Of a stretch of DNA of 64,000 bases, positions 437 to 63,417 are shown piece after piece (position 1 is the stretch's first letter; each line of letters starts with the position of its first letter). Below the pieces are notes generated by a model. The model saw only the letters and a program-made list of their open reading frames with translations, made no database searches and was not told the DNA's origin. The stretch is from an uncultured delta proteobacterium. GTDB taxonomy: Bacteria > Desulfobacterota > BSN033 > UBA1163. The DNA is taken from assembly GCA_963695895.1 (NCBI GenBank), contig CAVOIK010000033.1, positions 28,426 through 92,425 on the forward strand. The letters run 5' to 3'. The position numbers and the translations under genes are program-made.

Positions 437-557
437 TGCGGGCAAGTCGGCTTGATACCCCGCCTTCCTGCCGATAGGCAGGGGCGGGGAGGAAAGCCGA
501 CCCTTTAATCATATCTACATCTCCCGGAAGCCCCGACCTGTGGGCGGTGGGCTTCAC
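437..557 (+). repeat. two-hairpin intergenic repeat, subtype A (stem GTCGGCT/AGCCGAC), copy A1
   Basis: Sequence is tGCGGGCAAGTCGGCT...CCTGCCgataGGCAGG...AGCCGACCCtttAATCATATCTACATCTCCCGGAAGCC...GGGCTTCAC. It lies between the permease and the binding-protein gene. Confidence 0.9.
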
Positions 558-577
558 TCGAAACTCGCGCTTACGCG

Positions 578-1345
578 TCACCTCCTTTCCGCTGAGACAT
601 GCCATGCGATTAGTCTTTTTTCCATCAGCGTGATGATTCCAACAAAAGAAAGTCCAAGGAGGGAACAGGCGATGATGCTGGCAAAGACCCGAGGGGTGTC
701 CATAATGTAAATAGCGTCGACGATGAGAAATCCCAACCCTCTGTACGCCCCAAAGACTTCTCCGACCACGGCGCCAATGACGGCTAAGGTCCAGGCGACC
801 TTGAAGCTTGCCAAGATCTGCGGAAGGGCGGATGGAAATTGTAGATATTTGAACTTCTGCCAACCAGAAGAGTGATACGAATCCATCCATTTCATCTCTG
901 AGGCCCCCGCGGATGCGAGCGCTTTGAAGGTGGGACCGAGCACCGGGAAGAAGACACAGATCAAGGCGGTCATGACCTTTGACCCCATGCCGCTCCCAAA
1001 GATAATGACGATGGGGGCCGCGATGGCCACGATCGGAGTACTGTTGAGGATGACCGCATACGGATAAAACATTTCTTTTAAAGGGCGAGACCAGAGGAAG
1101 AAGACGGCAATCGCAATCGCCAAGAACGAGCCAATGATGAACCCAAGCCCCGCCTCGATCAAGGTCATAGCGGTGTGAAGAGCCAACAACTCTGCTTTTG
1201 CATAGACATAGGAAACGATGGTCGTGGGGGCAGGAAGAAGAAATTTAGGAATGTGAAGTCCCCTGACCAACAGTTCCCACAGGACCAAGATACCGATGAT
1301 TGAGGCGATGGAGTAACGATTCATGGTTTCATGCGAAAGCGACAA
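578..1345 (-). CDS. ABC transporter permease, NitT/TauT (SsuC/TauC-like) family
   Basis: 255-aa ORF that is hydrophobic and multi-spanning, with the typical binding-protein-dependent inner-membrane component layout. It is adjacent to an NMT1-type binding protein. Confidence 0.8.
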   Translation of the reverse strand: MSLSHETMNRYSIASIIGILVLWELLVRGLHIPKFLLPAPTTIVSYVYAKAELLALHTAMTLIEAGLGFIIGSFLAIAIAVFFLWSRPLKEMFYPYAVILNSTPIVAIAAPIVIIFGSGMGSKVMTALICVFFPVLGPTFKALASAGASEMKWMDSYHSSGWQKFKYLQFPSALPQILASFKVAWTLAVIGAVVGEVFGAYRGLGFLIVDAIYIMDTPRVFASIIACSLLGLSFVGIITLMEKRLIAWHVSAERR

Positions 1346-1386
1346 TCAACGATGTCAGCATCACCCGTGGTTCTTTTGAGTCGCGT

Positions 1387-1898
1387 TCATAGCCGATCCT
1401 GGTTCATGAAGCTTCCCCGATACGACGCTTCTCCTTCCGTTCGTTCCAGAATGATCTGGCAGATTCGGACGCCGGGCTTCAGAACGAGAGGGAAGGGGGC
1501 TAAGTTTCCGATTTCCAAAACCTGTCGATTATCGATCCCAGGTTGAACAAAGCTTGCCGTCATATGAATGACTAGCCCGATTCGGGCAAAGCGACTCCGT
1601 CCTTCAAGCCACCCGCAGATGTTCGGCGGCAGTTTGATTCTCTCGAGGGTGATGCCCAAGACCGTCTCGCCCGGCATGAGCGTAAAGGACTCTTCACCTG
1701 CGACCCGCTCGGTGAGGTCTTCGAGAGAGAGTTGTTCATCCACCGTGAGGGCATTCCGTAATTTCTTAAATACCCGAAACTCGTTGCCCAGGCGGAGGTC
1801 AATCGATCCCGGACCCACCTGATGTCTATCGAGGGGTCGATGCTGATGGTTCCCCGGCCGATCTCTTTCAAGATTTCTTCCTTCGTCAATATTCCCAT
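1387..1898 (-). CDS. dcd: dCTP deaminase, reading frame broken once in this assembly
   Basis: The N-terminus MGILTKEEILKEIGRGTISIDPSIDI is in the frame of ORF 1572..1913. The remainder, QVGPGSIDLRLGNEFRVF...GWLEGRSRFARIGLVIH...NRQVLEI, is in the frame of ORF 1387..1980. The frames switch near 1826..1832. Confidence 0.8.
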
Positions 1899-2030
1899 AC
1901 CTGAACCCTCCACCTCTCACCCATCTAATTTCCGGGAGACGCTCCAAAAGACCATCCTTCGTACGTCGTCCCATCTTCAAGAGCCAGGGTAGCCTTGCGT
2001 CGGTGTCCGATCACATTCCACTCCTTATTT

Positions 2031-2148
2031 CACGGGCAAGTCGGCTGAATATCCCACGGGGAGGGAAGCCGACCCTAGAATGATGTCACCATTTCCCGGA
2101 AGCCCAGCCCTGTGCCTGCCGGCGGTAGGCAGGGGCGAGGAGCTTCAC
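2031..2148 (+). repeat. two-hairpin intergenic repeat, subtype A, copy A2
   Basis: Sequence is CACGGGCAAGTCGGCT..short apex..AGCCGACCCtagAATGATGTCACCATTTCCCGGAAGCC...CCTGCCggcggtaGGCAGG...GAGCTTCAC. In this copy the CCTGCC/GGCAGG module sits in hairpin 2. Confidence 0.9.
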
Positions 2149-2228
2149 TGACTGTTTTCGTTCTTCGAAAAGCCATGTCTCTGTTTTATGATCTACGGTA
2201 AGTCATTATTGGAATACGATTTGGACAT

Positions 2229-2306
2229 AAAAAAAGACCCCCGACGAATCGAGGGTCTTGGAGGTCCACTTCACGGATTTTAAGACAAGGACTTTCATAC
2301 CGGTGT
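2229..2306 (-). ncRNA. candidate small RNA of about 78 nt (promoter plus intrinsic terminator, no ORF)
   Basis: On the minus strand: TTGACA (2341..2336), a 17-nt spacer, then TGgTAGAAA as an extended -10 (2318..2313). Terminator hairpin AAGACCCTCGattcgtCGGGGGTCTT is followed by a T7 run (2259..2229). This is prediction only. Confidence 0.3.
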
Positions 2307-2530
2307 TGAGCCTTTCTACCATGCTCAACGAGATTTGTCAAGGACCAATAAAAAAGAGTGGTGATGGCAGAGGCCTTCTCCATTCCTAAAAAGAGACTTT
2401 AGCCACGCCAGTAGAATCTTCAGGAATGACTGCTTGTCCCCGATCCGGAACGCCGCCATCCTCAGACAAAAATGGAGTCCCGATCACCCATCCCGCAGGC
2501 AGAGGGAATGAACGATCGGCTCAAGCGCCT

Positions 2531-2818
2531 TTACGCGTAAACGTAGATTCTTGCTTTTGTGGGACGAGACATCAGCTTCTCGATTCTGGTTTGAATCTTC
2601 TTTCTCTCGCGATTTTTCTCCCACGTCTTCCAGTCGTCGGCGCTCTGCCACGTGGTAATCACGACATAATTCTGGGGATCATCCAAGGACCGAAGTGTTT
2701 CGCCCGAGATGTAGCCCTTGGCAGGCATCGCCTTCGATCTCAACTCTCGAAGCAGCTTGGACAACTCTGCGGCCTTCCCCCTCTTAACCTTCCGATCGAT
2801 AATCACCCTTACGGCCAT
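2531..2818 (-). CDS. antibiotic-biosynthesis-monooxygenase (ABM) domain protein
   Basis: Translation is MAVRVIIDRKVKRGKAAELSKLLRELRSKAMPAKGYISGETLRSLDDPQNYVVITTWQSADDWKTWE, an ABM-like ferredoxin-fold pattern. GGAGG lies 8 nt upstream of the ATG at 2818. The track ORF 2531..2854 starts further upstream. Confidence 0.65.
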   Translation of the reverse strand: MAVRVIIDRKVKRGKAAELSKLLRELRSKAMPAKGYISGETLRSLDDPQNYVVITTWQSADDWKTWEKNRERKKIQTRIEKLMSRPTKARIYVYA

Positions 2819-3239
2819 CGTCCCCACCTCCTCTCTCTTGTTGCATCCTATCAAGTCTTTTCCAAGATTTCAAGGAAAAAAGTGGAGGACCGATTAGCCT
2901 GTCAGTTACTGGGTCGCCCAGTCGTCCACAGAGGTCGATCTGCTCCGCCCTCGCGGTGCACCGCTCGCGTTTCAAAGGCGGGGCTTTACAGGTGAACCTA
3001 ACTAGCCTCTGGACTTTGATGAACGATGGTTTGTCAAGGGGGCGTGACGAGGCCCTTCGCAATAGGATCCGCCACTGAACCGCTGCGGGTGAGCAGGTCC
3101 ACCTCCGTAGGATCGAAGTGTGCCGCGCGGTAAGGGGGTAACGTACAGGTATTCCTTTTGGAGAGGTTCCGCTCAAGACGTTGCTGGTCAATGTTTGGAA
3201 ATGTGAGATCTTAAACCTTCAAACACGGATGGACAACGG
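2819..3239. other. about 420-nt GC-rich non-coding spacer with extensive helix potential (unassigned)
   Basis: No credible ORF; only overlapping frames with no family resemblance. Contains hairpins CTGGGtcgCCCAG and GCGGTG/CACCGC, and long-range pairs CTGCTCcgCCC / GGGtGAGCAG. No conserved motif of RNase P, tmRNA, SRP or the common riboswitches was recognised. Confidence 0.3.
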
Positions 3240-3347
3240 TGACCGGAGCGTGCCCTGCAAGCCCCGCCCTGTGGGCGGGGTAAAGGGGCACAATATAAAT
3301 GATAAATCATTGCCGGGAAGCCCCGCGCTGTGCGCAGAGAGCTTCAC
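3240..3347 (+). repeat. two-hairpin intergenic repeat, subtype B (stem GTGCCCC/GGGGCAC), copy B3
   Basis: Sequence is TGACCGGAGCGTGCCCt...GGGGCACAATATAAATGATAAATCATTGCCGGGAAGCC...GAGCTTCAC. It abuts the HAD gene stop codon (3348..3350). Confidence 0.9.
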
Positions 3348-4064
3348 TCAGGGAGGAGCACCTTCTGAGCTTCTGTTTGTCTCTTTATCCAGAAACAAAG
3401 AAAAGGCTTCAAGATTCTCAAAAAGGAGTTCGGGGTGTTGACTCTTGAGATTCTCGGAAGACTCTTGCCCCGTGGATACGGCAACGGCAATGGCTCCAGC
3501 CCGTCTGGCTGCGATGACATCTGATTCTGTATCCCCCACCACCAGGGACTGTCCCAAAGGAATCTCTAATCTTCTGGCACATTCAATGATGGCGTCCGGT
3601 GAGGGCTTGCGTTCCTTAACTTCCCGGGAGGTGACGAGGGCATCCAGATACTTCTCCAGACCGTATCTTCGGAACCGGGCCCACTCGTTTTCAGGAGGGG
3701 ACGTCCTGCCGGTCGCGATACCGATTTTCAATTGATGGTTCTTCAGTTTCTCGAATAATCGGTCAACCCCGGGAAAAGGTTTGACCTCCTCCACCTCCAC
3801 TTTCAGGAAGAGATCGAGGATGTCACTCCGGAGGGTTTCGATGAAGGGTTCTTCAAAAGAGGATGAATATCTTTCGTGGAGTGTTTCCGCCAAATTCATA
3901 TTTCTTCTGAAGCAAGACGCCAAGAATTCTTCAGAGACAGGTGCCAGCTGGTACTTTTTTAGGATGATATTGAGCACGGAGACCAGCGTTGCAAAGGAAT
4001 CAACGAGAGTTCCGTCAATATCAAAGATCACTCCTGCAACCTGATGGCCATTGACTCTTAACAT
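3348..4064 (-). CDS. HAD-superfamily hydrolase (phosphoglycolate-phosphatase-like)
   Basis: HAD motifs are present: VIFDIDGTLVDS (motif I), GIATGRTS (motif II) and VVGDTESDVIAARRAG (motif IV). Confidence 0.8.
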   Translation of the reverse strand: MLRVNGHQVAGVIFDIDGTLVDSFATLVSVLNIILKKYQLAPVSEEFLASCFRRNMNLAETLHERYSSSFEEPFIETLRSDILDLFLKVEVEEVKPFPGVDRLFEKLKNHQLKIGIATGRTSPPENEWARFRRYGLEKYLDALVTSREVKERKPSPDAIIECARRLEIPLGQSLVVGDTESDVIAARRAGAIAVAVSTGQESSENLKSQHPELLFENLEAFSLFLDKETNRSSEGAPP

Positions 4065-4110
4065 CGATCGTTCCTATTTCTCAGGTCCCCTGAGCCAGCC
4101 ACGGCTGAAG

Positions 4111-5323
4111 CTAAGGAAGTTTCTTCCGCTCCCTCTCTAAAGAGATAAATGTTGTTTGGGGAACGAGCTTCCCTTCTTTCACCACAAAGACACGAGACTC
4201 CACACTTGGGCGGTGGTCTTGCGAAGTGATCGTGACGGGTGGAACGAGTCCTCCAAGAACAACATCATGAAACTTCTCCAAAGAACTCCGAATCCCGTCC
4301 CGAGACAGTCGTTCTTCGGGAAGGGATCTCCCCAAGGCCTCCGCGATGATTTGAGCCGTCACCCAACCTTCCACAAAGGAGACCGTATGGACGTCGTGGG
4401 GATGCCATCTCTGATGAGCTTCTTTGATGGCGATCATTCCAGGCACGTCTGCTCCAAAAGGCGAGAAAGGCTGAATGCCGAGGACACCTTCGAAAGGTCC
4501 GAGCATTTCATCGAAGCCTTTCCCATGGATCATCCATCTCGTTTTCCATCCGATGTCCTTTGCCTCTTGGAGGACTGAAAAAGCTTCTTTGGGAGTCAAA
4601 CTGAGGTAGACGAAGTCTGGATTGTATTGTACTACAGGGGCAAGGACCTTCGCCCCGGGTTTTTCCGTCTTGTCTGCGGAAGGGGTTTCTTTCGACGGAG
4701 AAAACTCGGAAAACAGAACGTCCGGTCCGACGTCAAGACCGAGACGATAGGCTTCCGATTTTGCCTCTTCCAGGAAGTGGCGATCAAGGTAGTCTGAGGA
4801 CCCGACGAAGAGGATTTTGGGTTTCTTTGCCTTAATGCCAGAATTTTCGGCGATGAACTTAAGCCCGATCTTCGATAGATCCAGGGGAGTGGGGGAGGCG
4901 GAAAAGAAATAAGGGTACTTAGAAGGGTAGGTCAACGGGGATGGCAAGAAACTCACGAACGTGGGCGATCCGATTGAAATGAATATGAGACTGAAGGTTG
5001 ATTGCGGTTTCGGCAGAGTAGGTATAGAGAACCAGGATGCGGTCGATCTCATTCAGTTTTCGGTAGGCCGCCACTGTTTCAGCGACTTGAGATGTGTCTT
5101 CAATGACGAGGATCTCGAGTCTTCGTCCAAAAATGCCCCCTTGTTGATTGATCCATCTTGCTCCATCCTGCAACCCTCGTGCACATTCCCGACCGAGGTC
5201 TCCCCAGCGGCCAGCAAAAGGAACCAGAGCACCTACTTTCATCGCGGTTTGGCAGGCGCCAGAACCTGGAATCCACAGAATGAGAAATGCAAGAATCAGA
5301 AGGAGGAATCCCCTTTTTTTCAT
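4111..5323 (-). CDS. branched-chain-amino-acid-type ABC substrate-binding protein (LivK/Peripla_BP_6-like), frame broken once
   Basis: The N-part MKKRGFLLLILAFLILWIPGSGACQTAMKVGALVPFAGRWG...YSAETAINLQS is in the frame of ORF 4919..5485. It continues as LIFISIGSPTFVSFLPSPLTYPSKYPYFFSASP... in the frame of ORF 4111..5052. The switch is near 4985..4995. ATG at 5323 has AGAGAGGA upstream. Confidence 0.75.
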
Positions 5324-5609
5324 AGTCCTCTCTATTAGGAATTGGCCGTATAGAGCACGGCCAGGATTCGGGCCACTTGTCTTCGTGACATTGGACCCGG
5401 TGAGGGATATTCGAATCGTAGTAAATCGAGTCTCCGGGATAGATGGCGCAGCCCGTGCAGGTGTTCCCACGTTCGCAACAGGCATAGAAGAATCCGAGTC
5501 GGTTCATCTCTCCTCCGATACGGATCAACGACTTCGGGCAGGAGACAGTGCAAAGGCCGCAACCCTTACACCGTTCGGGATCGATTTCAATCTTCGCCAC
5601 GGGAGACAT
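5100..5609 (-). CDS. 4Fe-4S ferredoxin-domain protein; 3' boundary doubtful
   Basis: N-terminus MSPVAKIEIDPERCKGCGLCTVSCPKSLI carries a canonical CxxCxxCxxxCP motif followed by CTGC. The expected second cluster motif is incomplete. The last 220 nt or so of the ORF overlap the livK-like gene, so the real end is probably upstream of 5323. Confidence 0.45.
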   Translation of the reverse strand: MSPVAKIEIDPERCKGCGLCTVSCPKSLIRIGGEMNRLGFFYACCERGNTCTGCAIYPGDSIYYDSNIPHRVQCHEDKWPESWPCSIRPIPNREDYEKKGIPPSDSCISHSVDSRFWRLPNRDESRCSGSFCWPLGRPRSGMCTRVAGWSKMDQSTRGHFWTKTRDPRH

Positions 5610-6016
5610 TCCACTTCACCAGGAATAAGGCTGAACCGCAATTAACAAAAATTTGTAACACAAGTCTCTAAACCTTAGCAAATGACAGGCGATGGGAACC
5701 CTGCATCTCTTCCCTCGAAGGGTTGACCCGTTCGGTCGCGTCTAGCGCCACCTTTGGAAACGGGGTGAAGGAGTGCGGCTCAGGGTCAACCTTGAGCAAG
5801 CCTCGGCCTTTAGGCCGAGGAGTCGAAAGGTTGACTTCCGTCAGTTTGATCAGTTACGAAAAAATCATCCGCCTATGGGACTCTGTTGTTGTTTTCTTTG
5901 ACGGCGACTGGTAATATAGAAAGAGGAGGCAATCCTTCCTCTTTTTTGCAGAAGGGGATGCGGGAACCTGGGAACGGGTGAAGGTGTCTGGATGAGGACG
6001 AAGGAGCTTCCCAAGG

Positions 6017-6403
6017 ATGAAATTGAGCCAAGAAGAATTCGAAGACGCAGTTCTCTCTGCATTGAAGAAATTGCCGAAGCTCCTCAAAAACAAGATGGAA
6101 AACATCGATGTGGTCGTTGAAGAGGAGGCCTCTCGCGAAATCCTCGAAGACATGGGACTCCGTTCTCCCCGTCACTTGTTAGGTCTCTATCAGGGAATCC
6201 CATTCGATCGGAGAGGGTTTTACTACGGGAACGTCCTGCCAGACAAGATTACCCTTTTCAAGAACCCCATCGAGTCCGTCTGCCGGAACAAAGACCAGGT
6301 GGAGAAAAAAGTTAGAGAGGTCGTGATTCACGAAGTGGGCCACTATTTTGGCCTCGACGATGAGAGATTAGAGGAGCTAGGAAATGGAGACGAAGGCGAA
6401 TAA
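6017..6403 (+). CDS. zincin-like metallopeptidase family protein (HExxH, DUF1025/Zincin_1-like)
   Basis: 128 aa with VVIHEVGHYFGLDDERLEELG, and the conserved LLGLYQGIP...G segment typical of this small family. Confidence 0.7.
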   Translation: MKLSQEEFEDAVLSALKKLPKLLKNKMENIDVVVEEEASREILEDMGLRSPRHLLGLYQGIPFDRRGFYYGNVLPDKITLFKNPIESVCRNKDQVEKKVREVVIHEVGHYFGLDDERLEELGNGDEGE

Positions 6404-7172
6404 CGCCTTCCTCAAGTTTATCGGGACAGCAGGGGCAAGGTTTGTGGTGATGAAGCAACTCCGGGCCTCAGGAGGCCTCTGGATGTCGGTTGAAAGGACG
6501 AACCTCTCGATTGATCCTGGCCCAGGTGCCCTGGTTCGGTGTCTCAGTAGCAAACCGAAACTTGATCCCTCGACACTGGATGCCATTCTTCTGACTCACA
6601 GACACCTCGACCATTCGGGCGACGTGAATGTGATGATTGAGGCCATGACCGAGGGAGGATTGAAAAAGAGAGGCATTCTGTTTGCGCCTGAAGATGCCTT
6701 GGAAAATGATCCGGTGGTGCTGCGATATCTGAGAGATTCCCTTGAGAAAATTGAGATCCTCACGGAAAACAGGACATACCGGGTTGGGGATATCTCGTTT
6801 TCCACAGCTGAGAAACATCACCACCGAGGGGAAACGTATGGCATCAATTTTCATCTGTCCCCTTGTACCGTTTCTTTAATCACGGATACGCGGTTCTTTG
6901 CTGAACTCCCGAAGATTTACAACGGCGAGGTGTTGGTGATCCACGTCGTTCGGCTCAATCCTACCGGAGATGCCCCGATCGACCACCTCTCCATCGAAGA
7001 TGTCAAGACCCTCATTAAGAAAGTGAAACCAAGATTAACCGTTCTGACTCATTTCGGGATGACGATGATTCGAGCCAAACCATGGAAGGTTGCTGCTGAA
7101 CTCGAGAAAGAGCTAGGAGTAAGGGTGATTGCAGCCAGCGATGGCTTAAAACTAGATTTAAAGGAGGTATGA
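6384..7172 (+). CDS. MBL-fold metallo-hydrolase
   Basis: HRHLDHSGD (HxHxDH) motif in a 262-aa protein. Confidence 0.75.
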   Translation: METKANNAFLKFIGTAGARFVVMKQLRASGGLWMSVERTNLSIDPGPGALVRCLSSKPKLDPSTLDAILLTHRHLDHSGDVNVMIEAMTEGGLKKRGILFAPEDALENDPVVLRYLRDSLEKIEILTENRTYRVGDISFSTAEKHHHRGETYGINFHLSPCTVSLITDTRFFAELPKIYNGEVLVIHVVRLNPTGDAPIDHLSIEDVKTLIKKVKPRLTVLTHFGMTMIRAKPWKVAAELEKELGVRVIAASDGLKLDLKEV

Positions 7173-8299
7173 TCATGGAAAAGTTGAGTGTAGGAGAATG
7201 GAAACCACAATCCGTCATTCTATTGGGGCCGGGTCCAAGCAATGTCCATTATCGAGTTTACCAAGCAATGTCAACCCCTGTCATCGGTTATCTCGACCCT
7301 CAACTTCTGACCTGTCTAGACGAGATCAGGTTGATGTTGAAAGATCTTTTCCAGACGAAGAATCGTCTCACCCTTGCCCTTCCTGCCACGGGAGGGGGTG
7401 GAATGGAAGCCTCTTTTTTCAATTTTGTCGAACCGGGAGATACAGTCGTCATCGGCGTCAAAGGGTTTTTTGGGGACAGGATGACGGAGGTGGCCAGTCG
7501 ATGTGGTGCGAAGGTCATTCGAGTCGATCAGGAATGGGGGAAGGTCATCGAGCCTGAACAAATGATCAAAACCCTCAAAGAACACCCGGAGGCAAAGATC
7601 TGTGCCATCATCCATGCCGAGACCTCGACAGGAATAAGGCAACCCCTTGAAGAAATCGGAGCTTACTGTAAGAAGACAGGCACCCTATTTTTAGTCGATG
7701 CGGTGACCTCTCTGGGGGGGTGCGAGGTGAAGGTGGATCACTGGGGAATTGACATCTGCTACAGCTGCACCCAGAAGGGGATCAGTGTCCCACCGGGACT
7801 TTCTCCGATCACGGTAAGCCCTAAGGCGACGGATGTACTCCACTCACGCAAGACGAAGGTCCAAAGCTGGTATTTTGACTTATCGCTTCTTGAAAAATAT
7901 TGGGGTGAAGAGAGAGCCTACCACCATACCACCCCTGCCTCCATGTTCTATGCCCTGAGAGAGGGATTGAGGATCGTTTTTGAGGAGGGACTCGAGGCAA
8001 GATTTAAACGTCACGAAACCCTGGGTGATCGCCTGAAGATGGAATTAGAGGACCTCGGCTTCAAACTCTTTGCCCAGGAAGGATATCGGTTGCCGATGTT
8101 GACTTCAGCCTACCTTCCCGCAGGAGTAGACGATGCCGCGACGCGGAAGAGGCTTCTGAATGATTATCATATGGAAGTGGGAGGAGGGTTGGGGCAGGTG
8201 AAAGGAAAGATCTGGCGCGTCGGCTTGATGGGTGAGGCGTGTCGGATTCAGAACATTGAGTATCTCATTGCCGCGCTCCGGGAGATTCTGAAAAAATAG
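7169..8299 (+). CDS. class V aminotransferase (alanine-glyoxylate / serine-pyruvate aminotransferase-like)
   Basis: Contains LLGPGPSNV, HAETSTG, DAVTSLGG and the SCTQKG PLP-lysine context. 376 aa. Confidence 0.8.
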   Translation: MIMEKLSVGEWKPQSVILLGPGPSNVHYRVYQAMSTPVIGYLDPQLLTCLDEIRLMLKDLFQTKNRLTLALPATGGGGMEASFFNFVEPGDTVVIGVKGFFGDRMTEVASRCGAKVIRVDQEWGKVIEPEQMIKTLKEHPEAKICAIIHAETSTGIRQPLEEIGAYCKKTGTLFLVDAVTSLGGCEVKVDHWGIDICYSCTQKGISVPPGLSPITVSPKATDVLHSRKTKVQSWYFDLSLLEKYWGEERAYHHTTPASMFYALREGLRIVFEEGLEARFKRHETLGDRLKMELEDLGFKLFAQEGYRLPMLTSAYLPAGVDDAATRKRLLNDYHMEVGGGLGQVKGKIWRVGLMGEACRIQNIEYLIAALREILKK

Positions 8300-8346
8300 A
8301 GAGGTGGCACCTCGAAGTCATCTTCGATGGAGCCAGATTTCTGAAG

Positions 8347-8976
8347 ATGGGTCGATGGGCTGAATCCCTCATGAATCGAAAAAGGGCAAAGAAAAGACCC
8401 CCATCGCGCGAAAAATGCCTGAGGCTCATGGACCAGCGTGGAATGCTGGGTAACATTGTCAGTCACAGTCTGGAGGTGACAAGGGTGGCACTCTTCCTCT
8501 GTGAAGAGCTGAATAAGAGAGGACAGCGGATCGATGCCGATCAGGTGGAGGCGGCTTCACTCCTGCATGATCTCGCCAAAACAGAATGCCTTTCAACGAA
8601 GGAAGATCACGCCCAACAGGGGTATGAGCTCTTGAAGAAGATGGGGTATGACAGAATTGGACAGGTGGTGGCCCAACACATTCAAATTTGGAAAGAAGGG
8701 AATCCTTCTTGTGTCTCAGAGGAAGAAGTTGTGAACTATGCCGACAAGAGGGTCTGCCACGATCGCATTGTTTCTCTCGAGACTAGATTTCAGGACCTCA
8801 AAGATCGCTACGGGAAGGGTCGGACGTCTCTTGGCCAGCTCAAAAAACTAGAAGAAGCAACTGTTGAGATCGAAAGAAAGATCTTCTCCATTCTTCAGAT
8901 GGATCCGAACGACCTTGAGCATCTTCAATGCAATCCGGTGAGTGGCCAACGACGAAATCGAAAGGGACAGAAGTGA
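8347..8976 (+). CDS. HD-domain (HDIG-like) phosphohydrolase
   Basis: H...HDLAK metal-binding signature. 209 aa. The stop overlaps the next gene as GTGA. Confidence 0.7.
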   Translation: MGRWAESLMNRKRAKKRPPSREKCLRLMDQRGMLGNIVSHSLEVTRVALFLCEELNKRGQRIDADQVEAASLLHDLAKTECLSTKEDHAQQGYELLKKMGYDRIGQVVAQHIQIWKEGNPSCVSEEEVVNYADKRVCHDRIVSLETRFQDLKDRYGKGRTSLGQLKKLEEATVEIERKIFSILQMDPNDLEHLQCNPVSGQRRNRKGQK

Positions 8977-10124
8977 CAGACCTCTTTTTTGAACAAGGTC
9001 CCATCCGACCTCCAAGCGAGGCACAGAGCCTTCTTCTGCGGCTGACGAGGAACTGTCCTTGGAACCGATGTGAATTCTGCCACACCTACAAGGACCAGAA
9101 GTTTAGCCTTAGAACAGTTGAGGAAGTGAAGAAGGACATCGATACGGTCTCTGAGATTGCCCAGGAACTGAAGGCGCTGTCTTGGAGGGTCGGGGAGGGA
9201 GGGGAGATCACGGCGAATCTGGTTCGGTTTGTCCTGCAGAACCCCAGGGACTATCCTGACGCCTTTCGGAGTATCGTTCTCTGGCTTTACGCCGGAGGGA
9301 AGAATGTTTTTCTCCAAGACGCAAACAGCCTCGTGTTAAAGACGGATCACGTGGTGGAGATGTTGACTTACCTTCGAAAAAAATTTCCTTTCGTGGAGAG
9401 AATCACTACCTACGCTCGTAGCAAAACCATCTCAAAGAAAAGTGTGGATGAGTTACGCTCTCTTCACCGTGGGGGGCTGTCTCGAATCCACATTGGCCTG
9501 GAAACAGGCTACGATCCTTTGCTGGAGTATATCCAAAAAGGGGTGACTGCGGAGGAACACGTCATTGCAGGGAGGAGAGTCAAGGATTCGGGAATCTCCC
9601 TCTCAGAATATGTGGTCCTCGGACTGGGCGGCAAGAAGATGTGGCGTGAACACGCTATCGAAACAGCAAGGGTACTCAGCCAAATCAATCCTGACTTTAT
9701 TCGTGTTCGAACGTTGAGAGTATTGAAGACCATGCCTCTTCATGAGAAGATCGCGAGAGAAGAATTCGTCCTGATGAGTGATGAGGAAGTTGTCCTGGAG
9801 GAGAAGCTTCTGATTGAGCACCTCAACGGAATCAGCAGTCGTTTTGTGAGCGATCATATTCTGAACCTCCTGGAAGAGGTTGAGGGAAAACTCCCTGAGG
9901 GGAAAGAGAAGATGTTGGCGGTCATCGCCCAATACCTTGCTCTCTCTGAAGAAGAGAAGCAAAACTTCCGTCTTGGAAGGAGAGCCGGGATCTATCGGTT
10001 CCTGAGTGATCTGCAGAATCCAGAACTTCACAACGAAGTGGAAAAGGCAATCAAACGGATTAAAGAAGAGACGCCTGGAGGTATTGAAGCGGTGATCTCC
10101 GAATTGATGAGCTCGTTCATCTAG
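8973..10124 (+). CDS. radical SAM domain protein with unusual CX4CX2C cluster motif
   Basis: Contains LLLRLTRNCPWNRCEFCHTY. The GTG at 8973 overlaps the HD gene stop (GTGA) and has AAGGGA upstream. The track ORF starts at ATG 8928 as an alternative. Confidence 0.75.
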   Translation: MTDLFFEQGPIRPPSEAQSLLLRLTRNCPWNRCEFCHTYKDQKFSLRTVEEVKKDIDTVSEIAQELKALSWRVGEGGEITANLVRFVLQNPRDYPDAFRSIVLWLYAGGKNVFLQDANSLVLKTDHVVEMLTYLRKKFPFVERITTYARSKTISKKSVDELRSLHRGGLSRIHIGLETGYDPLLEYIQKGVTAEEHVIAGRRVKDSGISLSEYVVLGLGGKKMWREHAIETARVLSQINPDFIRVRTLRVLKTMPLHEKIAREEFVLMSDEEVVLEEKLLIEHLNGISSRFVSDHILNLLEEVEGKLPEGKEKMLAVIAQYLALSEEEKQNFRLGRRAGIYRFLSDLQNPELHNEVEKAIKRIKEETPGGIEAVISELMSSFI

Positions 10125-10135
10125 GGAAGATCATT

Positions 10136-10248
10136 TGACCGGCAAGTGCCCCGCAAGCCCCGTCCTTGAGGGGGCGGCCAAGGGGCACGAATATAATTGG
10201 GAAAGTACCTTACCGGGAAGCCACGCTCTTTAGGGCGTGGAGCTTCCC
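10136..10248 (+). repeat. two-hairpin intergenic repeat, subtype B, copy B4
   Basis: Sequence is TGACCGGCAAGTGCCCCgcaagCCCCGtCCttgaGGgGGCGG..GGGGCACgAATATAATTGGGAAAGTACCTTACCGGGAAGCCACGCtcTTTAGGGCGTGGAGCTTCCC. Confidence 0.9.
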
Positions 10249-10304
10249 AATTTTTATCCCTTGCAAATTTTGTCACAAAAAGTAAAAACTTTGACACAAA
10301 ACAC

Positions 10305-10333
10305 TTGACATTTTAAAAGACAGTGGATAAGAT
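10305..10333 (+). promoter_or_regulatory. sigma-70-type promoter for the HU gene
   Basis: TTGACA (10305..10310), 17-nt spacer, TAAGAT (10328..10333), about 58 nt upstream of the ATG. Confidence 0.5.
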
Positions 10334-10390
10334 GAGCCTCGTTTTCGCTTGGAGTCAATACAATCTTGGAAGAAAGGGAGGTGATTTGTA

Positions 10391-10663
10391 ATGACGAAGG
10401 CGGAGTTGGTTGCGGCCATGGCGAAGGAAGCCAAAATTTCAAAGGTGTCAGCTGAAAGGGCCCTGAATGCGTTTGCAGGTGCAGTGACTAAAGCGTTGAA
10501 GAAGGGCGACAAGCTGACACTCACAGGGTTTGGCACCTTCTGTGTGGCGAAGAGGAGGGCCAGGACGGGGAGGAATCCTCAGACTGGGAAAGAGATCAAG
10601 ATTGCTGCGACAAGAGTAGCCAAATTCAAAGCGGGTAATTTGCTGAAGAGCGCCGTCAAGTAA
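10391..10663 (+). CDS. hup: DNA-binding protein HU
   Basis: MTKAELVAAMAKEAKISKVSAERALNAFAGAVTKALKKGDKLTLTGFGTFCVAKRRARTGRNPQTGKEIKIAATRVAKFKAG is a textbook HU/IHF fold sequence. 90 aa. Confidence 0.95.
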   Translation: MTKAELVAAMAKEAKISKVSAERALNAFAGAVTKALKKGDKLTLTGFGTFCVAKRRARTGRNPQTGKEIKIAATRVAKFKAGNLLKSAVK

Positions 10664-10706
10664 TCCTAAAACCAAATTTCTCAAAACCATTTTCAGGTTT
10701 GTTTGA

Positions 10707-10744
10707 GGGGGAAGAACAGGAATTCTTCCCCCTCCCTGTTTTTT
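10707..10744 (+). terminator. intrinsic terminator after the HU gene
   Basis: GGGGGAAGAAcaggaaTTCTTCCCCC followed by tccctgTTTTTT. Confidence 0.6.
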
Positions 10745-11174
10745 CAATGATCAGGGCCTGTCTATCTGACAACGTTCTTTAAACAGGTTATTAACAAGAA
10801 GGTGTCGTCACAGACTGATAGAACCACAATATCTTGTGCTGGGACAAAGAAGAATAACAAACCTGCAACTATTTGAAATTACATATATTTCTTGTATGGA
10901 TGTCTTCCTTTAGCAGTGATTTTCCAATCGATTTGGGGAAGTACAGGCCGTTACCACACTTTTTTCCACAGGATTTTCACATCTGAGTACACCTCCTCTC
11001 TAGCCCTTGATGCGAGGACATTTAGCGGATGCCGCCGCTGCTTTCCAGTGATGGTAGAAGGATTGCTGAGATCTCTGTGCTGAGGGCATTGCAGAATCAA
11101 CGTCAGCGCAATCCTGACTTCGCATCATCAGGTTTGGAGGCCATTGGAGCAATTCCTTCTTTTCTAGACGGTAC

Positions 11175-11488: not shown

Positions 11489-11603
11489 ACCCTTGAATGG
11501 GCACTCTGGACGTAGGAATCTGGTTGAAAGACCAGGTGGTTTTTGTTATCGTTCATTCAATCCAAAGAATGTCTCAGCAACTCAGGAAAATCAGGATAAT
11601 AAG

Positions 11604-13538: not shown

Positions 13539-13549
13539 GCCGCATGTGA

Positions 13550-52171: not shown

Positions 52172-52351
52172 GGGTCTTGCCGTCCCCAACGGGGCTTTGC
52201 TCCAGGCCAAGAGAGAATAAAAGGCCAAACCTCCAACATAAAAAAGAAGGAAATCCGATAACATTATAAATTTAATGAGGAAAAATGCAATAGGAAAAAT
52301 AGTTCTTGGCACTTACAGCCGTAAATACTGTCGTATACAAGCGTCACTGAC

Positions 52352-52599: not shown

Positions 52600-52641
52600 A
52601 TTCAAAATATTTTTTAGATTCAACAAAAAAGGAGTGGTTTC

Positions 52642-54161: not shown

Positions 54162-55145
54162 TCAGGAAGGGGTTTTGTTCTTAAAGACGTTTTCTTGGGC
54201 CCACTCGATGTCCTTTTGGATCCGGGTGATGAGCTGTGCAATAGAATCGAATCGGGCTTCGTCTCGGATCCTTCTAACAAAGTCAATCTGAATTTCCTCT
54301 CCGTAGATGTCCTCATCGAAATCAAGGATATAGACTTCTGACGAGATCTTTCCTTCTCCTTCCGTTTGAAATGTAGGATTCCAGCCGACGTTGGCGACAC
54401 CCTTGAAGGATTGCCTCTTCCACAGGACCTCAACGGCGTAGACTCCGGGCAGAGGAGTTAACTCCTCGGAGATTTCAAGATTGGCTGTTGGAAATCCGAG
54501 GAGGTGTCCCCTTTTTGCTCCCTCGATGACCTTTCCAAGAATAGAATAATGTCGTCCCAGGAGTTTGGAGGCTTTCTCAACTTGGCCGTTCTTGATCAGT
54601 TCTCGAATCTTGGAACTGCTGACCGTCGTTCCTTCGATGATCAGGGAGTCTATGATTTCAACCTGAAGGTTGAACAGGCTTCCAATCTGTTTCAAAATTT
54701 GAGGATTCCCTTTATTATTTTTTCCAAAATGGTAGTTGAATCCCACAATCACCTTTTGAGCCCCCACTTTTTCAATGAGGATGTTCTTAACAAAATCGGA
54801 AGGAGACATCTCTGAGAAAGTCTTTGTGAATTCGATGCAGAGGAGGACATCCATTCCTGATTGCTCGATGAGCAAGATCTTCCTTCTGAAAGGAGTCAAA
54901 AAAGGAGGACAGGATTTGGGTGATAGGACCTTCAACGGGTGAGGCTCAAAAGTAATGACCACGGATTCCCCGCCCATCCTTGAGGCTTCTGTCTTTACCC
55001 TCTCGAAGATTTTCTGATGCCCGAGATGGAGACCATCGAAGTTACCCAGGGTAACGACTGGGTTCACCAGTCGCCTCGACAAGCGATCAATGCCGAAAAT
55101 CGTTTCCACGTCAACAGTCCTCGAAGGTGCACCGCTTGTAAGCAT
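54162..55145 (-). CDS. ribF: bifunctional riboflavin kinase / FMN adenylyltransferase
   Basis: VVTLGNFDGLHLGHQKIF, and the C-terminal kinase domain GFPTANL...GVYAV...NVGWNPTF. Confidence 0.9.
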   Translation of the reverse strand: MLTSGAPSRTVDVETIFGIDRLSRRLVNPVVTLGNFDGLHLGHQKIFERVKTEASRMGGESVVITFEPHPLKVLSPKSCPPFLTPFRRKILLIEQSGMDVLLCIEFTKTFSEMSPSDFVKNILIEKVGAQKVIVGFNYHFGKNNKGNPQILKQIGSLFNLQVEIIDSLIIEGTTVSSSKIRELIKNGQVEKASKLLGRHYSILGKVIEGAKRGHLLGFPTANLEISEELTPLPGVYAVEVLWKRQSFKGVANVGWNPTFQTEGEGKISSEVYILDFDEDIYGEEIQIDFVRRIRDEARFDSIAQLITRIQKDIEWAQENVFKNKTPS

Positions 55146-55476
55146 TCACGGGTGGCGACTCGGCCAGTGTGGCCTTCTCCGCACCCCTGCACGGTGGGTC
55201 TTTAGACGAATGGGTAATCGGGCTTGCGGGGGTACAAGATCGCTTCCAAGGGGTTTCGTTTCTGCAGTGAGACAGGTAAAGGTGTCGCCCTGCCTACCGG
55301 CAGGCAGGCACAGGGTTTCTCCGAAGACCGCACTGGCCCGTTCACCTGTGACGGGCAAGTCGGCTGGATGCCCCGGCTTCCTGCCCGTAGCAGGGGCGGG
55401 GAGGAATGCCGACCTTGTAATCATATCTACATTTCCCGGAAGCCACGGCCTGCGGGTGGAAAGCTTCATTTTCCCA
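55142..55476 (+). repeat. long variant of the subtype-A repeat (copy A15L)
   Basis: Collinear with 11175..11488: shared GCATTCA, GGtGGCG..C.CG.CC.GTGTGGCCTTCTCCG.ACCCCTG.ACGG.GGGTCT..AGACGAATGGGT ... CGCCCTGCCTACCGG.AGGCAGGCACAGGGTTTCTCCGAAGACC.CACTGG, then the A core from 55348. The ribF start codon (55145..55143) lies in the shared left edge. Confidence 0.85.
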
Positions 55477-55579: not shown

Positions 55580-55668
55580 GCCGAAGTGGCGGAATTGGCA
55601 GACGCGCTAGATTCAGGGTCTAGTGGGATGTAAGTCCTGTGGGGGTTCAAGTCCCCCCTTCGGCACCA
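55580..55668 (+). tRNA. tRNA-Leu (anticodon CAG), encoded CCA
   Basis: Hand-folded cloverleaf. Acceptor GCCGAAG/CTTCGGC. Anticodon stem CTAGA/TCTAG with loop TTCAGGG. Long variable arm. T-arm GGGGG-TTCAAGT-CCCCC. Discriminator A plus CCA. Confidence 0.9.
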
Positions 55669-55749: not shown

Positions 55750-55858
55750 TCACGGGCAAGTCGGCTGGAGGCCCTGCTTGTAGGCGGGGAGAAAAGCCGA
55801 CCCTGTAATGACAGATACATTTCCCGGAAGCCCTGCTCTGTGGGGGGGGAGAGCTTCC
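55750..55858 (+). repeat. two-hairpin intergenic repeat, subtype A, copy A16
   Basis: TCACGGGCAAGTCGGCTGGaggCCCTGCttgtaGGCGGGGagaaAAGCCGACCCTGTAATGACAGATACATTTCCCGGAAGCCCTGCtctgtGGGGGGGGAGAGCTTCCC. Confidence 0.9.
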
Positions 55859-55869
55859 CTTGTTTCGGT

Positions 55870-56991
55870 ATGGAAGGTATGGAACACGGGGTACGAAAAA
55901 TACTGATCGTTGACGACAATCCGGAGTTCGCCCGGATGACGGGACGATTCCTGGAACATCAGGGCTTTCGTATTGCGATTGCGGACAGTGGGTATAAAGC
56001 AGTTGAAAAGATTCAGTCCGAGCCTCAGGATTTGGTCCTCCTCGACTTGAAATTGCCTGACGTTATGGGCATGGAGGTCCTGAAACGCATTAAGGAGATC
56101 AATGACGATATCGCTTTCATCATCATCACAGGTTACGGCGGGGAACAGGTGGCGATCGATTTCATGAAGGCGGGGGCCCTCGATTTTCTGTCGAAACCCA
56201 TTGACAATGACATCCTTTTGAAAACCATCAAGAATGCCCTCAAGATCCGTGATGCCCAAGTTGAAGACAAACAGTTGAAGGGATATTCGACCTTAGAGAG
56301 GTTCTTTCCTTTTCTCGCCCACGAAATCAGAAATCCTCTCCATGCGATTGGTGGAGCATTGGCCATCATCCAGAGGCGAACCGATCTAAAGGATGAGCTC
56401 TTGGCCCAGTCCATGAAGATCATTCAGGAGGAAATTCAACACCTGAACGAGTTTGTCCAGGAGTGTTTGGATTTTGTCCGGCCCCCGGTCAGGAGTCACT
56501 ATGTGGAAGTGGACCTCAATGAATTGGTTTCTATCGTGATCAGCATCGTGTCTTATATGTTTCAGGAGTCGTCGCAGAAGGTCAAGGTGACAACTCACCT
56601 GGCCCCCAAGCTTCCAAAGGTTCAAGCCAACTATGAGGAAGTTAAGCAAGCCCTGCTGAATATTGTCAAGAATGGATTTGAAGCCATGGAGGAAGGGGGA
56701 GAATTTACTGTCACGACAACTTTCAAACCCAATCCCAATCCCGATCCCAACCCCGGATGGGTGGAGATTACCTTCGTGGACAGTGGCCCCGGGATTAGAG
56801 AAGAGAACAAGAAGTACCTCTTTAGCCCCTTCTTCACAACGAAACTGAGGGGAACCGGCCTTGGTCTCCCGATCTGTCATAGAATTATTGTGGAGCGGCA
56901 TAAAGGAAGAATGCATTTTGAAAGCGAAGAGACCAAGGGAACCACGATGAAGGTTGAACTACCTATCGGCCATCCCATGGAGATGCCCTGA
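55870..56991 (+). CDS. hybrid receiver-histidine kinase (REC-HisKA-HATPase)
   Basis: KILIVDDNPEFARM...LLDLKLPDVMG...SKPI, then FLAHEIRNPLHAIGG, and GTGLGLPICHRIIVERHKG. The ATG at 55870 was chosen because the track ORF (55639) starts inside the tRNA/repeat region. Confidence 0.8.
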   Translation: MEGMEHGVRKILIVDDNPEFARMTGRFLEHQGFRIAIADSGYKAVEKIQSEPQDLVLLDLKLPDVMGMEVLKRIKEINDDIAFIIITGYGGEQVAIDFMKAGALDFLSKPIDNDILLKTIKNALKIRDAQVEDKQLKGYSTLERFFPFLAHEIRNPLHAIGGALAIIQRRTDLKDELLAQSMKIIQEEIQHLNEFVQECLDFVRPPVRSHYVEVDLNELVSIVISIVSYMFQESSQKVKVTTHLAPKLPKVQANYEEVKQALLNIVKNGFEAMEEGGEFTVTTTFKPNPNPDPNPGWVEITFVDSGPGIREENKKYLFSPFFTTKLRGTGLGLPICHRIIVERHKGRMHFESEETKGTTMKVELPIGHPMEMP

Positions 56992-57119
56992 CCGGCAAGT
57001 GCCCCGTAAGCCCCGCCCTTGAGGGCAGGGTCCCTGCCTGCCGGCAGGCAGGAAGGGGCACAATATAAAAGGAAAGTACCCTACCGGGAAGCGACGCCCT
57101 TTAGGGCGTGGAGCTTCAC
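56989..57119 (+). repeat. two-hairpin intergenic repeat, subtype B, copy B17
   Basis: The kinase stop TGA (56989..56991) is the first three bases of TGACCGGCAAGTGCCCCgtaagCCCCGCCCttgaGGGCaGGGtCCCTGCCTGCCGGCAGGCAGGaaGGGGCACAATATAAAAGGAAAGTACCCTACCGGGAAGCGACGCCCtttaGGGCGTGGAGCTTCAC. The next gene starts 10 nt later. Confidence 0.95.
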
Positions 57120-57129
57120 ATAAAGAACT

Positions 57130-61972: not shown

Positions 61973-62271
61973 ATTAGATTCTCTCGCCCGCTTCTCTTTC
62001 TACTCCGCGGAGTACAGGGTTTCGATCTTTTCTTCGTCCGGCCACCTCATCTCCATCTGTTAAGTCTGCATATATATAGGTCCTCATGAATTATTAGGTG
62101 AGACTGACCGCTTGTAGGAACAGCAGTGGAAGAAATTTGCAACTTTTTCCCCAATTTTTTCCTCTTTTTCCCTGACTTGACAGGAAAGGGCATAACCGCT
62201 TATTCAAAGAAAGCTCAGGAATCCATTGTAATTTCAACGGGTTAGTCATATCCTTCAATCTGATATCCCCT

Positions 62272-62287
62272 TGGCACATGAATTGCT
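62272..62287 (+). promoter_or_regulatory. sigma-54 (-24/-12) promoter, exact consensus, 17 nt upstream of an activator ATG
   Basis: TGGCAC-atgaa-TTGCT. The ATG of the PspF-like activator is at 62304. Confidence 0.55.
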
Positions 62288-62303
62288 CCTTTATCAGATT
62301 GTC

Positions 62304-63306
62304 ATGAAGAGAATTTACCAGATTTTCTTCTCCCACAACTCTAAGCTGAGCAGAATCCAGACGGTCGTTGAAGACATTGCGAGGACGGATATTTCTGTTC
62401 TGATCAAGGGTGAAAGCGGCACAGGAAAGGAGCTGGTCGCGCAAGCCATCCATCAGCATTCACTGCGCAAGTCCCAACCGTTCATAAAAGTGAACTGCGC
62501 GGCTATCCCCAAGGGGCTGCTTGAAAGTGAACTCTTCGGGTTTGAAAAGGGAGCTTTTACAGGCGCCCACATGAAAAAGCCAGGAAAGTTCGAATTGGCC
62601 AACGAGGGGACGATATTACTTAACGGAATTGCAGAGATGGACATTTCGGTGCAAGGAAAGCTGCTGCAGGTCCTTCAGGATGGTCAATTTTGCCGTTTAG
62701 GTGGGGGTGGGGCTGTTTCTGTAGACACCCGAATCATTGCGACCACGCAAGACCATCTTGAGCAGGCAGTCAGGGAAGGGCTTTTTCGTGAAGACCTTTT
62801 TTACCGCATCAACACCGTGACGGTTACGATCCCTCCTCTTCGAGACCGGAAAGAACAGATCGTCCCGTTTTCTCAATACTTTTTGAATCTCTATAGGACG
62901 AAGTACGGAAGGGCTGTTCCTTCGCTTTCATTGAGAACCCTCGGTGCCTTCAAGAAGTATCATTGGCCTGGAAACATCCGTGAATTGGAAAACACCATAA
63001 AGCGGATTGTTTTATTGGGGGATGAGGAAGCGGTCGTAGCGGGCCCTGGTTTTGAAAGAAGCGGGAGACGAGAGAGCTGTCGAGATTTCGCAGGAGAGTC
63101 ACCCGGGCATGAATTCTGTAGATCCTGCAGATATCAGACAGGTTGGGAGGAAAGCTGCAGAGACAGCAGAGAAGAGGATCATTCAGAACACGCTGCACGA
63201 AACACGCTGGAATCGGAAGGACGCTGCCAGGCGGTTAGGAGTGAGCTATAAGACGCTGCTGAACAAGATCCAGAAGTACCAGTTAGACAGAGTTCAAGAA
63301 CTGTGA
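62304..63306 (+). CDS. PspF-like sigma-54 activator lacking a sensory domain (AAA+-HTH only), frame broken once
   Basis: MKRIYQIFFSHNSKLSRIQTVVEDIARTDISVLIKGESGTGKE, with Walker A about 40 aa from the start, as in PspF. Also GAFTGA. The C-terminus continues in ORF 63052..63306 (WNRKDAARRLGVSYKTLLNKIQKY). Break near 63041..63047. Confidence 0.75.
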
Positions 63307-63417
63307 CCGGCAGTGTGTCCTGCCCCGCCAGGAAGGGGCACAACAAGAAAAGATAATTCATTTCCGGGAAGCCCCGCCCTGTGCCTGCCTGCGGTAGGCA
63401 GGGGCGAGGAGCTTCAC
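63304..63417 (+). repeat. two-hairpin intergenic repeat, subtype B (degenerate hairpin 1), copy B18
   Basis: The stop TGA (63304..63306) is the first three bases of TGACCGGCAGTGTGTCC...GGGGCACAACAAGAAAAGATAATTCATTTCCGGGAAGCCCCGCCCtgtgCCTGCCTGCGGTAGGCAGGGGCGAGGAGCTTCAC. Confidence 0.85.

Follow-up and report, generated by a model that had tools for sequence, protein, structure and literature searches.

A dispersed, lineage-restricted family of hairpin repeats, probably mobile and with base-exact insertion sites, in an uncultured Thermodesulfobacteriota-like bacterium

The spacers between genes on a 64,000-nt stretch of DNA from an uncultured delta proteobacterium (positions 28,426 to 92,425 of contig CAVOIK010000033.1, assembly GCA_963695895.1; the whole stretch is called the window here) carry many copies of a hairpin repeat that comes in two subtypes, A and B, which raises the question of what these repeats are, how they came to lie between so many genes and what their folded structure serves. 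The setting is core chromosome: the window encodes selB, iorAB, an M16 peptidase, guaB, guaA, dnaE, accA, mutL, hflX, ribF and lepB, together with pilus and secretion ATPases and many two-component and sigma-54 regulators. Its host is an uncultured, Thermodesulfobacteriota-like bacterium of the sulfate-reducer type; the closest named AccA homologs belong to metagenome-assembled genomes labelled Deltaproteobacteria or Thermodesulfobacteriota (83% and 78% identity), and one protein of the window is recorded in metagenome assemblies only.

That the repeats form a real dispersed family is virtually beyond doubt. Profiles made from the window copies and run with nhmmer find 18 copies in the window, 11 of subtype A and 7 of subtype B, and a covariance model built on an alignment of both subtypes (R1), as the initial annotation of this DNA had proposed, returns the identical set with no other credible match; this is also the set that the annotation had listed. 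Seventeen of the 18 reach E <= 5e-8 with R1, the internally deleted copy at 32233-32303 reaches E = 0.15, and the single spurious match is a palindrome at 16471-16520 on the minus strand. The 5' motif TSACSGGCAAG, with at most one mismatch, occurs 17 times in the window against 3.9 expected, a count equalled by none of 100 shuffles, and in a direct-repeat scan of the window the copies fall into overlapping families. Judged by curated gene calls, the window has 27 intergenic spacers that exceed 100 nt, and 17 of these hold copies, as does one spacer of 85 nt; no copy lies within the body of any intact gene, as had been noted. Together the copies cover 3.6% of the window and 22% of the DNA between its genes, with one copy per 3.6 kb; both strands are occupied, and the start-to-start spacing, from about 400 to about 10000 nt, is irregular and not that of a CRISPR array. 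Pfam scans of 36 open reading frames (ORFs) gave housekeeping and signalling domains only, which bears out the absence of a transposase from the window, and among the families of Rfam 15 only tRNA-Leu reaches the gathering score there. No description of the family was found in the literature on MITEs (miniature transposable elements with inverted repeats), repetitive extragenic palindromes (REPs) and palindrome-associated transposable elements (PATEs), and set against this literature, Rfam, a plasmid collection and viral contigs it is apparently undescribed.

The copies are not the product of local duplication, an alternative that the initial annotation had allowed for: a 26-base pattern matches at least 120 JGI contigs from freshwater sediment and wetland. 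Across the window and 612 kb of listed metagenome contigs nhmmer finds 199 copies (156 A and 43 B; 192 unique), with A and B frequently on one contig, and R1 has 152 matches in 98 sources across the searched sequences. No copy was found in the viral contigs and the plasmid collection, and five syntenic loci of relatives (63 kb in total, 83-86% AccA identity), whose synteny spans guaB-TPR-DUF4388-guaA-dnaE-accA-mutL, contain zero R1 matches. The A/B family is dispersed and lineage-restricted. A looser, 19-base GC-rich pattern gave 115 single matches on genome contigs, which were set aside as chance matches in high-GC genomes.

Five sites that are filled on one sequence and empty on another give the boundaries of the element exactly and bear out the suggestion that it is mobile. 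The inserted unit, about 100-190 nt long, reads 5'-AC(G/C)GGCAAG...GAGCTTC-3' and is placed between T(C/G) and A(C/T)T. On locus L126 the flank CTCTATC is followed by the insert GCGGGCAAG...GAGCTTC and the flank ACTATTTG, where the empty site on L125 reads CTCTATC|ACTATCTG; L202 has GGTTC[GCGGGC...GGGCTTC]ACTTTAG, with the insert in brackets, and L151 has TCTTC|ACTGTAG. The window copy at 3240 lies between the flank ACGGTG and the flank ACTCAGGG, with the insert ACCGGAGCG...GAGCTTC, and its empty counterpart on L132 is AACAATG|ACTCGGGG. The fourth pair involves a second repeat, family E, of which both window copies are filled (CCTGTC[ACGGGC...GCTTC]ATTTTCC) and the copy on L226 is empty (CCTGTC|ATTTTTC). 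One boundary model accounts for these four pairs with zero substitutions at the junctions. The fifth is the dnaE-accA spacer, which measures 9-13 nt in relatives (GGAGTGAGC...ATG) and contains an antisense A copy in the window; compared with L236 and L237 the 5' flank is the same and the 3' flank is one base off (AT versus AC), the relative being distant. No target duplication can be demonstrated at the five pairs, nothing being longer than an ambiguous 2 nt, and among 127 copies conservation is at background level beyond TCAC on the 5' side and CACT on the 3' side. The termini are not inverted repeats of each other (ACGGGCA at the 5' side against GAAGCTC, which is the 3' side reverse-complemented). 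A transposase was found neither in the window nor in the 612 kb of related contigs, in keeping with the non-autonomous element that had been suggested. The family is thus, with high probability, mobile non-autonomous DNA that inserts between T(C/G) and A(C/T)T.

Other placements of the boundary were discarded. A 4-nt TCAC duplication is contradicted by the lack of correlation between the tetranucleotide variants at the two ends and by B, which combines a 5' TGAC with a 3' TCAC; insertion 3' of TCAC would require L126 and L202 each to have undergone an identical A-to-G change, and the AC is missing from empty family-E sites; and an element defined as TCAC...GAGCT fails on the window copy at 3240 compared with L132. 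Copies with a TCGC flank have no internal diagnostic bases in common and were rejected as a sublineage.

The internal structure is more elaborate than the two hairpins first described. Given 38 A copies, RNAalifold returned three helices unprompted. One is a closing helix P0 (4 bp), in which the 5' C(G/C)GG (CGGG in A) pairs with CC(C/G)G (CCCG in A) just ahead of hairpin 2; the others are hairpin 1 (P1, whose stems are GTCGGCT/AGCCGAC in A and, as seen in that subtype, GTGCCCC/GGGGCAC in B) and hairpin 2 (P2, GAAGC...GCTTC). The skeleton of the initial annotation was therefore right in that both hairpins exist, but it overlooked the third helix and counted as element terminal tetranucleotides that are partly flank: its initial T(C/G) and final AC(T) belong to the target, outside the element, and its variable apex consists of nested optional hairpin modules. 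A fold of one copy with DNA parameters has the same helices, at an energy only modestly below that of shuffled sequences (z = -1.69). Subtypes A and B can be aligned column by column, and in this alignment (A2) 94.6% of cells pair, compared with 38-55% when partners are slid, and compensation between the subtypes is seen at six pairs, of which P0 has one, P1 four and P2 one. For 148 distinct copies (alignment A5) the figures are 94.9% and 40-55%, with changes on both sides in 17 of 23 pairs, which none of 500 shuffles matches. One P0 position shows three pair types: A copies have G:C there, B copies have C:G, and the divergent copy at 45416 has A:T. P0 and P2 are predicted to stack on the continuous strand CC(C/G)GGAAGC, so that the 3' end (...GCTTC) would adjoin the 5' end (A-CGGG...) and the termini would lie side by side.

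Each arm carries, in direct orientation, the same inner GC hairpin (consensus CCCCGCC(C)-loop-(G)GGCGGGG-AG) with a conserved AG bulge or overhang. Minimal copies with a single hairpin, such as the one at 32233-32303, have the 5' arm joined to the 3' arm via this shared inner hairpin; similar forms are present in metagenome loci, and one of them occupies a site where a related contig has a full copy. Recombination between the two inner hairpins would yield copies of this kind. The apexes hold optional small hairpin modules, CTGCC-N4-GGCAG and CCCGTCTTAACGGG. The former has 12 matches against 0.04 expected and is found in the apexes of A, B and E copies; its sites in the window are 468, 16420, 17312, 26854, 33566, 38906, 52506, 55290 and 57034, and it also occurs in other hairpin repeats of L237 (around 4810-4850 and 5100-5140), a relative without A and B. 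Possibly it is a module in its own right that settles in hairpin loops.

How such dense insertion is tolerated may be read from the position of the copies relative to genes. Between co-directional genes, 47 A copies are antisense and 19 sense (two-sided p ~6e-4, normal approximation), whereas 21 B copies are sense and 5 antisense (two-sided p ~2e-3, by the same approximation). Of 60 A copies whose 3' neighbour is an antisense gene, 19 have as the stop codon of that gene the TCA of the terminal GCTTCAC, and the gene beyond the other side of A copies often starts 5-40 nt from the 5' end of the element. Within the window, the TGA stop codons of dnaE (38810-38812) and of the TPR gene (32235-32237) each consist of a flank T and a GA contributed by the element, and that of a kinase gene (56989-56991) consists of a flank TG and the first A of the element. 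B inserts in sense orientation into TG^A, where its initial A restores TGA, and A inserts antisense into T^GA, where the GA heading its reverse complement does the same. Since the element starts with A and its reverse complement with GA, a split TGA is rebuilt, and insertions at gene ends therefore survive selection; on this account the difference between the two ways of splitting the codon is sufficient alone to explain the opposite orientation biases of A and B. The strand bias within the window (15:3 in favour of plus) can be accounted for by the gene-relative bias.

Taking these features together, the best overall reading, which we consider reasonably probable, is that A and B constitute a lineage-specific non-autonomous mobile DNA family of the REP/PATE kind that is moved in trans, probably as single-stranded DNA by an HUH/Y1 enzyme. 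Such an enzyme (IS200/IS605 TnpA or RAYT-like) would bind the two like hairpins and cut at the helix junction. Taken by itself, this single-strand mechanism is a tentative proposal, with a prospect somewhat short of even; it is suggested because inverted repeats and target duplication are lacking, like hairpins lie on one strand, an asymmetric bulge is conserved and bases 5' of a hairpin pair with the terminus. These features are hallmarks of IS200/IS605 and PATE ends and of REP recognition by RAYT; the ends of IS200/IS605 elements are subterminal hairpins on one strand, guide tetranucleotides 5' of these hairpins select the cleavage sites by base pairing, and PATEs derive from these elements but encode no protein (PMC8266576; bioRxiv 10.1101/2023.03.14.532601). 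A candidate guide tetranucleotide 5' of the inner left hairpin is GATG in A, which would pair with TC, and CAAG in B, which would pair with TG; this fits between the subtypes, and a role as target guide is speculation.

Several points weigh against this proposal and the fold on which it draws. The target is kept on both sides of the cut, T(C/G)^ACT, whereas classical IS200/IS605 elements read only the 5' side of theirs. Variation of the flank dinucleotide within A is not tracked by the candidate guide, and copies with a CC flank mostly retain GATG. A replication-strand bias is not shown: outside the window there is no association (97 of 174), and GC skew on short contigs follows the gene strand (54 of 63 contigs). 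The helix stems are nearly invariant within a subtype, so that covariation consists mostly of the split between A and B plus scattered changes, and alignment A5 was fitted to the model structure, which tilts pairing counts in its favour. A phmmer search of 2924 ORFs from the window and the 612 kb found no Y1- or RAYT-like ORF, a weak negative given that the queries (IS608-TnpA-like and E. coli-RAYT-like) were approximations. No autonomous partner turned up in the same sequence: where a longer stretch begins with the 5' terminus, it is a decayed copy or belongs to a third subtype, and none of these stretches encloses a gene. Finally, neither a circle-like junction (expected as GAGCTTC joined to ACGGGCAAG) nor a tandem junction occurs in the sequences searched.

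The conservation of the target on both sides of the insertion point is better met by the main rival explanation, according to which a double-stranded circle with the joint ...GCTTC|AC... recombines at T(C/G)AC sites through a trans-acting enzyme such as a serine recombinase, a tyrosine recombinase or a DEDD recombinase of the IS110 type that uses a guide RNA. The predicted joint TTC|AC would mimic the target TC|AC, and exact insertion with no duplication beyond the ambiguous 2 nt would be expected. However, B targets TG|AC while its own joint would be TC|AC, neither the window nor the loci yielded a recombinase, the joint itself was not observed, and the conservation of an asymmetric bulge (GGGG-AG-CTTC), like the compensation in the helices, suggests a folded single strand rather than duplex sites. 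We therefore regard this rival as unlikely. Distinctly unlikely, in our judgement, is also that the three-helix fold is the recognition device of a new class of mobile elements, in which the splint CC(C/G)GGAAGC would align the termini and perhaps the target for cleavage and joining by an enzyme not yet linked to miniature elements, and in which the choice between TC and TG would be encoded by bases of the element itself; the family would then be a small, self-guided and reprogrammable system for DNA insertion with stop codons as its target.

A further rival is that the copies are mainly functional RNA or cis-regulatory modules under selection at each locus (stabilisers of 3' ends, operon insulators or hairpins near stop codons that tune translation), with mobility being secondary; a structured RNA module had indeed been offered initially as an alternative. 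REP elements stabilise mRNA and, near a stop codon, lower translation; many copies lie directly after a stop codon and just ahead of the next ribosome-binding site, and their hairpins, being GC-rich, would fold whichever way a copy is turned. However, copies face both ways relative to genes, and A and B do so with opposite bias. G:T mismatches in the stems (31) are not in excess of A:C mismatches (34), so that the RNA fold of neither strand is preferentially kept; the minimum free energy of the top strand is 1.5 kcal/mol lower, and the bottom strand is richer in G:U pairs. None of the seven copies in 1-20000 was called terminator- or promoter-like, permissive Rfam scans of five copies gave only sub-threshold noise from GC hairpins, and the same operons in relatives do without any copy. 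Locus-by-locus function is therefore improbable, and the helices most likely serve mobilisation: their compensation would reflect the needs of the mobilising machinery in active copies, and inserted copies would then decay neutrally. An element mobile at the RNA level, whose transcript would fold on the internal splint, be cut or ligated into a circle and be copied back into DNA, gains something from the way P0 and P2 bring the termini together but is highly improbable, since about 70% of A copies run antisense to the genes around them, the copies examined show no promoter, no known ribozyme family matches, Pfam scans of the window show no reverse transcriptase and there is no G:U strand asymmetry.

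Among known systems the family works most like PATEs or like REPs and their composites, the bacterial interspersed mosaic elements (BIMEs), yet it fails defining features of both. Like PATEs, the repeats are short and non-coding, have no terminal inverted repeats, have two similar hairpins on one strand with one close to either end, contain internal sequence 5' of a hairpin that pairs with the terminus, and would move in trans. Their exact insertion by a short specific motif, with no duplication demonstrable at the five pairs, resembles that of PATEs in part, the conserved ACT on the 3' side being atypical. They differ in that no cognate tnpA/tnpB element with A or B ends was found in the 64-kb window and the 612 kb of loci, that target bases are kept to either side of the cut with no replication-strand bias shown, and that the hairpins are part of a three-helix fold whose closing helix ties the left terminus to the base of the right hairpin. 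With REPs and BIMEs they share the character of very abundant, GC-rich, non-coding intergenic palindromes with a conserved bulge and mosaic hairpin modules, often between genes of an operon. However, they lack GTAG at the hairpin foot, where CAAG, GATG or AAGC is found instead; they are composites of about 100-190 nt with two different hairpins in direct, not inverted, orientation around an AT-rich linker; their insertion site is base-exact; and the sequence searched, with approximate queries, holds no RAYT-like ORF.

MITEs such as Correia, ERIC, RUP, Nezha and Chunjie are likewise small, non-autonomous, intergenic, present in high copy number and tolerated in operons, and Chunjie of Geobacter reportedly sits within an operon that it leaves undisturbed. 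MITEs of this sort are bounded by terminal inverted repeats and flanked by target-site duplications; the A/B family has neither. A direct contrast is provided by family E, a true inverted-repeat MITE that stands beside two A copies. This second dispersed repeat, of about 212 nt, occupies 11168-11379 and 55135-55346 in the window, each copy running about 25 nt past the adjacent A copy, and holds the A element 4 nt past the 3' arm of its terminal stem in both cases; it recurs on L144 (612-839), L179 (8-251 and 8412-8623), L226 (2553-2771) and L166 (4262-4462). Its ends form a terminal stem of about 25 bp, with eight compensated pairs among six copies, and it has no Rfam match. The attC sites of integrons resemble the repeats as strand-specific folded recombination sites with unpaired bases that lie densely between genes, but A and B have no R''/L''-L'/R' boxes (RYYYAAC...GTTRRRY), no integrase is present, and the neighbours are core housekeeping genes in mixed orientation (dnaE, accA, mutL, guaA, guaB, selB, iorAB), not cassettes. 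The features tested thus exclude a MITE with terminal inverted repeats, an attC site, a CRISPR array and an Rfam family. Lineage-specific families of hairpin repeats of this general kind are common, and the A/B family is a fresh example of a familiar type of selfish repeat and does not amount to a new kind of system; what is unusual about it are the self-splinted termini, the site that rebuilds a stop codon, the two co-resident subtypes with compensated helices and the very high density.

Other repeats accompany the family. A third subtype (L118, around 5005-5130; L148, around 7132-7260) shares the 5' end TCACGGGCAAG and has a different interior (CCCCTGCC...CGCCCCTGTGGGGCG...), and the conserved 5' terminus therefore marks a wider superfamily. 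A further hairpin-rich repeat, with CCACGG...CCGTGG, CTGCGTAGG and GGCAGGC modules, is found on L151 (1530-1730), L136 (400-640), L150 (1400-1620) and L208 (around 100-240), and on L150 and L208 it takes the place of the 5' half of an A or B copy. Three long spacers of the window (329-964 nt) are without an A or B copy, namely 52313-52641, which contains a CTGCCCACAGGCAG hairpin at 52506, 49390-50044 and 5053-6016.

The individual copies of the window, whose coordinates follow model R1 and so take in flanking bases (2 nt at the 5' side, 3 nt at the 3' side), illustrate the variety of gene contexts; scores are R1 bits unless stated otherwise. Among the B copies, all of them on the plus strand, 10136-10249 (99.5 bits) begins 12 nt past the stop codon of a radical-SAM gene (8928-10124) and is in sense with it, and 40090-40201 (107.5 bits) lies in sense between accA and mutL. 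At 16375-16506 (92.5 bits), between iorA and iorB, the TAG stop codon of iorA (16374-16376) directly abuts the first base of the element, and at 56989-57120 (95.2 bits) the TGA of the kinase gene overlaps the start of the copy. The 3' flank ACT of 3240-3348 (89 bits), the copy whose site is empty on L132, merges into the TCA, that is the reverse complement of the TGA stop codon, of a HAD-phosphatase-like gene (3348-4064, minus strand). The copy at 33521-33669 (50.5 bits), with modules in both apexes, abuts the likely start of guaA, where the GATase domain begins at residue 59 of ORF 33501-35204, and 63304-63418 (53.2 bits), with hairpin 1 partly deleted, has the gene of a sigma-54 activator on one side and on the other an ORF whose GGDEF match is weak and falls below threshold (20.2 bits; cutoff 23.8).

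Three subtype-A copies are on the minus strand: 17213-17357 (66.5 bits), with both apex modules, lies antisense between iorB and the M16 peptidase gene; 38808-38951 (73.9 bits) fills the dnaE-accA spacer, which is empty in L236-L240; and the minimal copy 32233-32303 scores 15.8 bits and matches positions 4-59 of the nhmmer A profile. On the plus strand, 436-558 (82.8 bits; 124 bits with nhmmer A) ends 20 nt from the stop codon of an ABC-permease-like gene (578-1345, minus strand), and 2030-2149 (77.5 bits), with a CTGCC...GGCAG module in the apex of hairpin 2, is located upstream of and antisense to a dcd-like gene (1387-1980, minus strand). The two copies beyond family-E repeats are 11382-11483 (88 bits), which has short apexes and lies upstream of selB, and 55349-55470 (74.3 bits), upstream of tRNA-Leu (55580-55668); between this tRNA gene and a response-regulator/histidine-kinase gene follows 55750-55860 (100.6 bits). 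The copy at 23472-23593 (82.3 bits), in the spacer that separates the divergent genes of a DegT aminotransferase and a SpoU methylase, follows on a tandem duplicate of its 5' end that is 15 nt long (23455-23469), the terminus reading TTCGACAGGCAAGTG and then TTCGACAGGCAAGTC over 23455-23486. A divergent, long A-like copy at 45416-45607 (44.2 bits) has the closing helix TAGG/TCTG, which provides the third P0 pair type mentioned above.

The remaining A copy, 26822-26992 (plus strand, 75.8 bits), carries an extra GGACTCC...GGAGTC module and lies at the truncation point of rtcA, as had been noted. The N-terminal fragment of this gene (26583-26822, within ORF 26583-26885) has a Pfam RTC match (1-66 of 221) that stops where the copy starts, and the remainder of the gene is gone; since the fragment ends exactly at the start of the copy, a deletion associated with the element is suggested. 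Genes are also split across overlapping or adjacent ORFs at 43654-45397, 45625-47789 and 4111-5485. They include a pilS-like kinase with HisKA divided over two ORFs, which is intact in L237 (556 aa), a pilC-like T2SSF gene that has one domain out of two, an incomplete T2SSE ATPase and a gene for a periplasmic binding protein, and they are either pseudogenes or the result of indel errors in a long-read assembly.

For the organism, these repeats put hairpins between the genes of operons (dnaE-accA, iorA-iorB) and mark sites of gene loss (rtcA), and as a practical matter repeats of this kind break metagenome assemblies. If our reading is correct, genomes of these uncultured freshwater anaerobes would each hold roughly a thousand copies, as extrapolated from 18 per 64 kb to a few megabases, and the family would be a candidate for a single-strand insertion system with a base-exact target that is partly encoded by the element itself. 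The problem of landing in a compact genome would have been solved by splitting TGA and rebuilding it from the element ends, and the family would offer a clean natural case in which the choice of target shapes the orientation bias of a repeat family.

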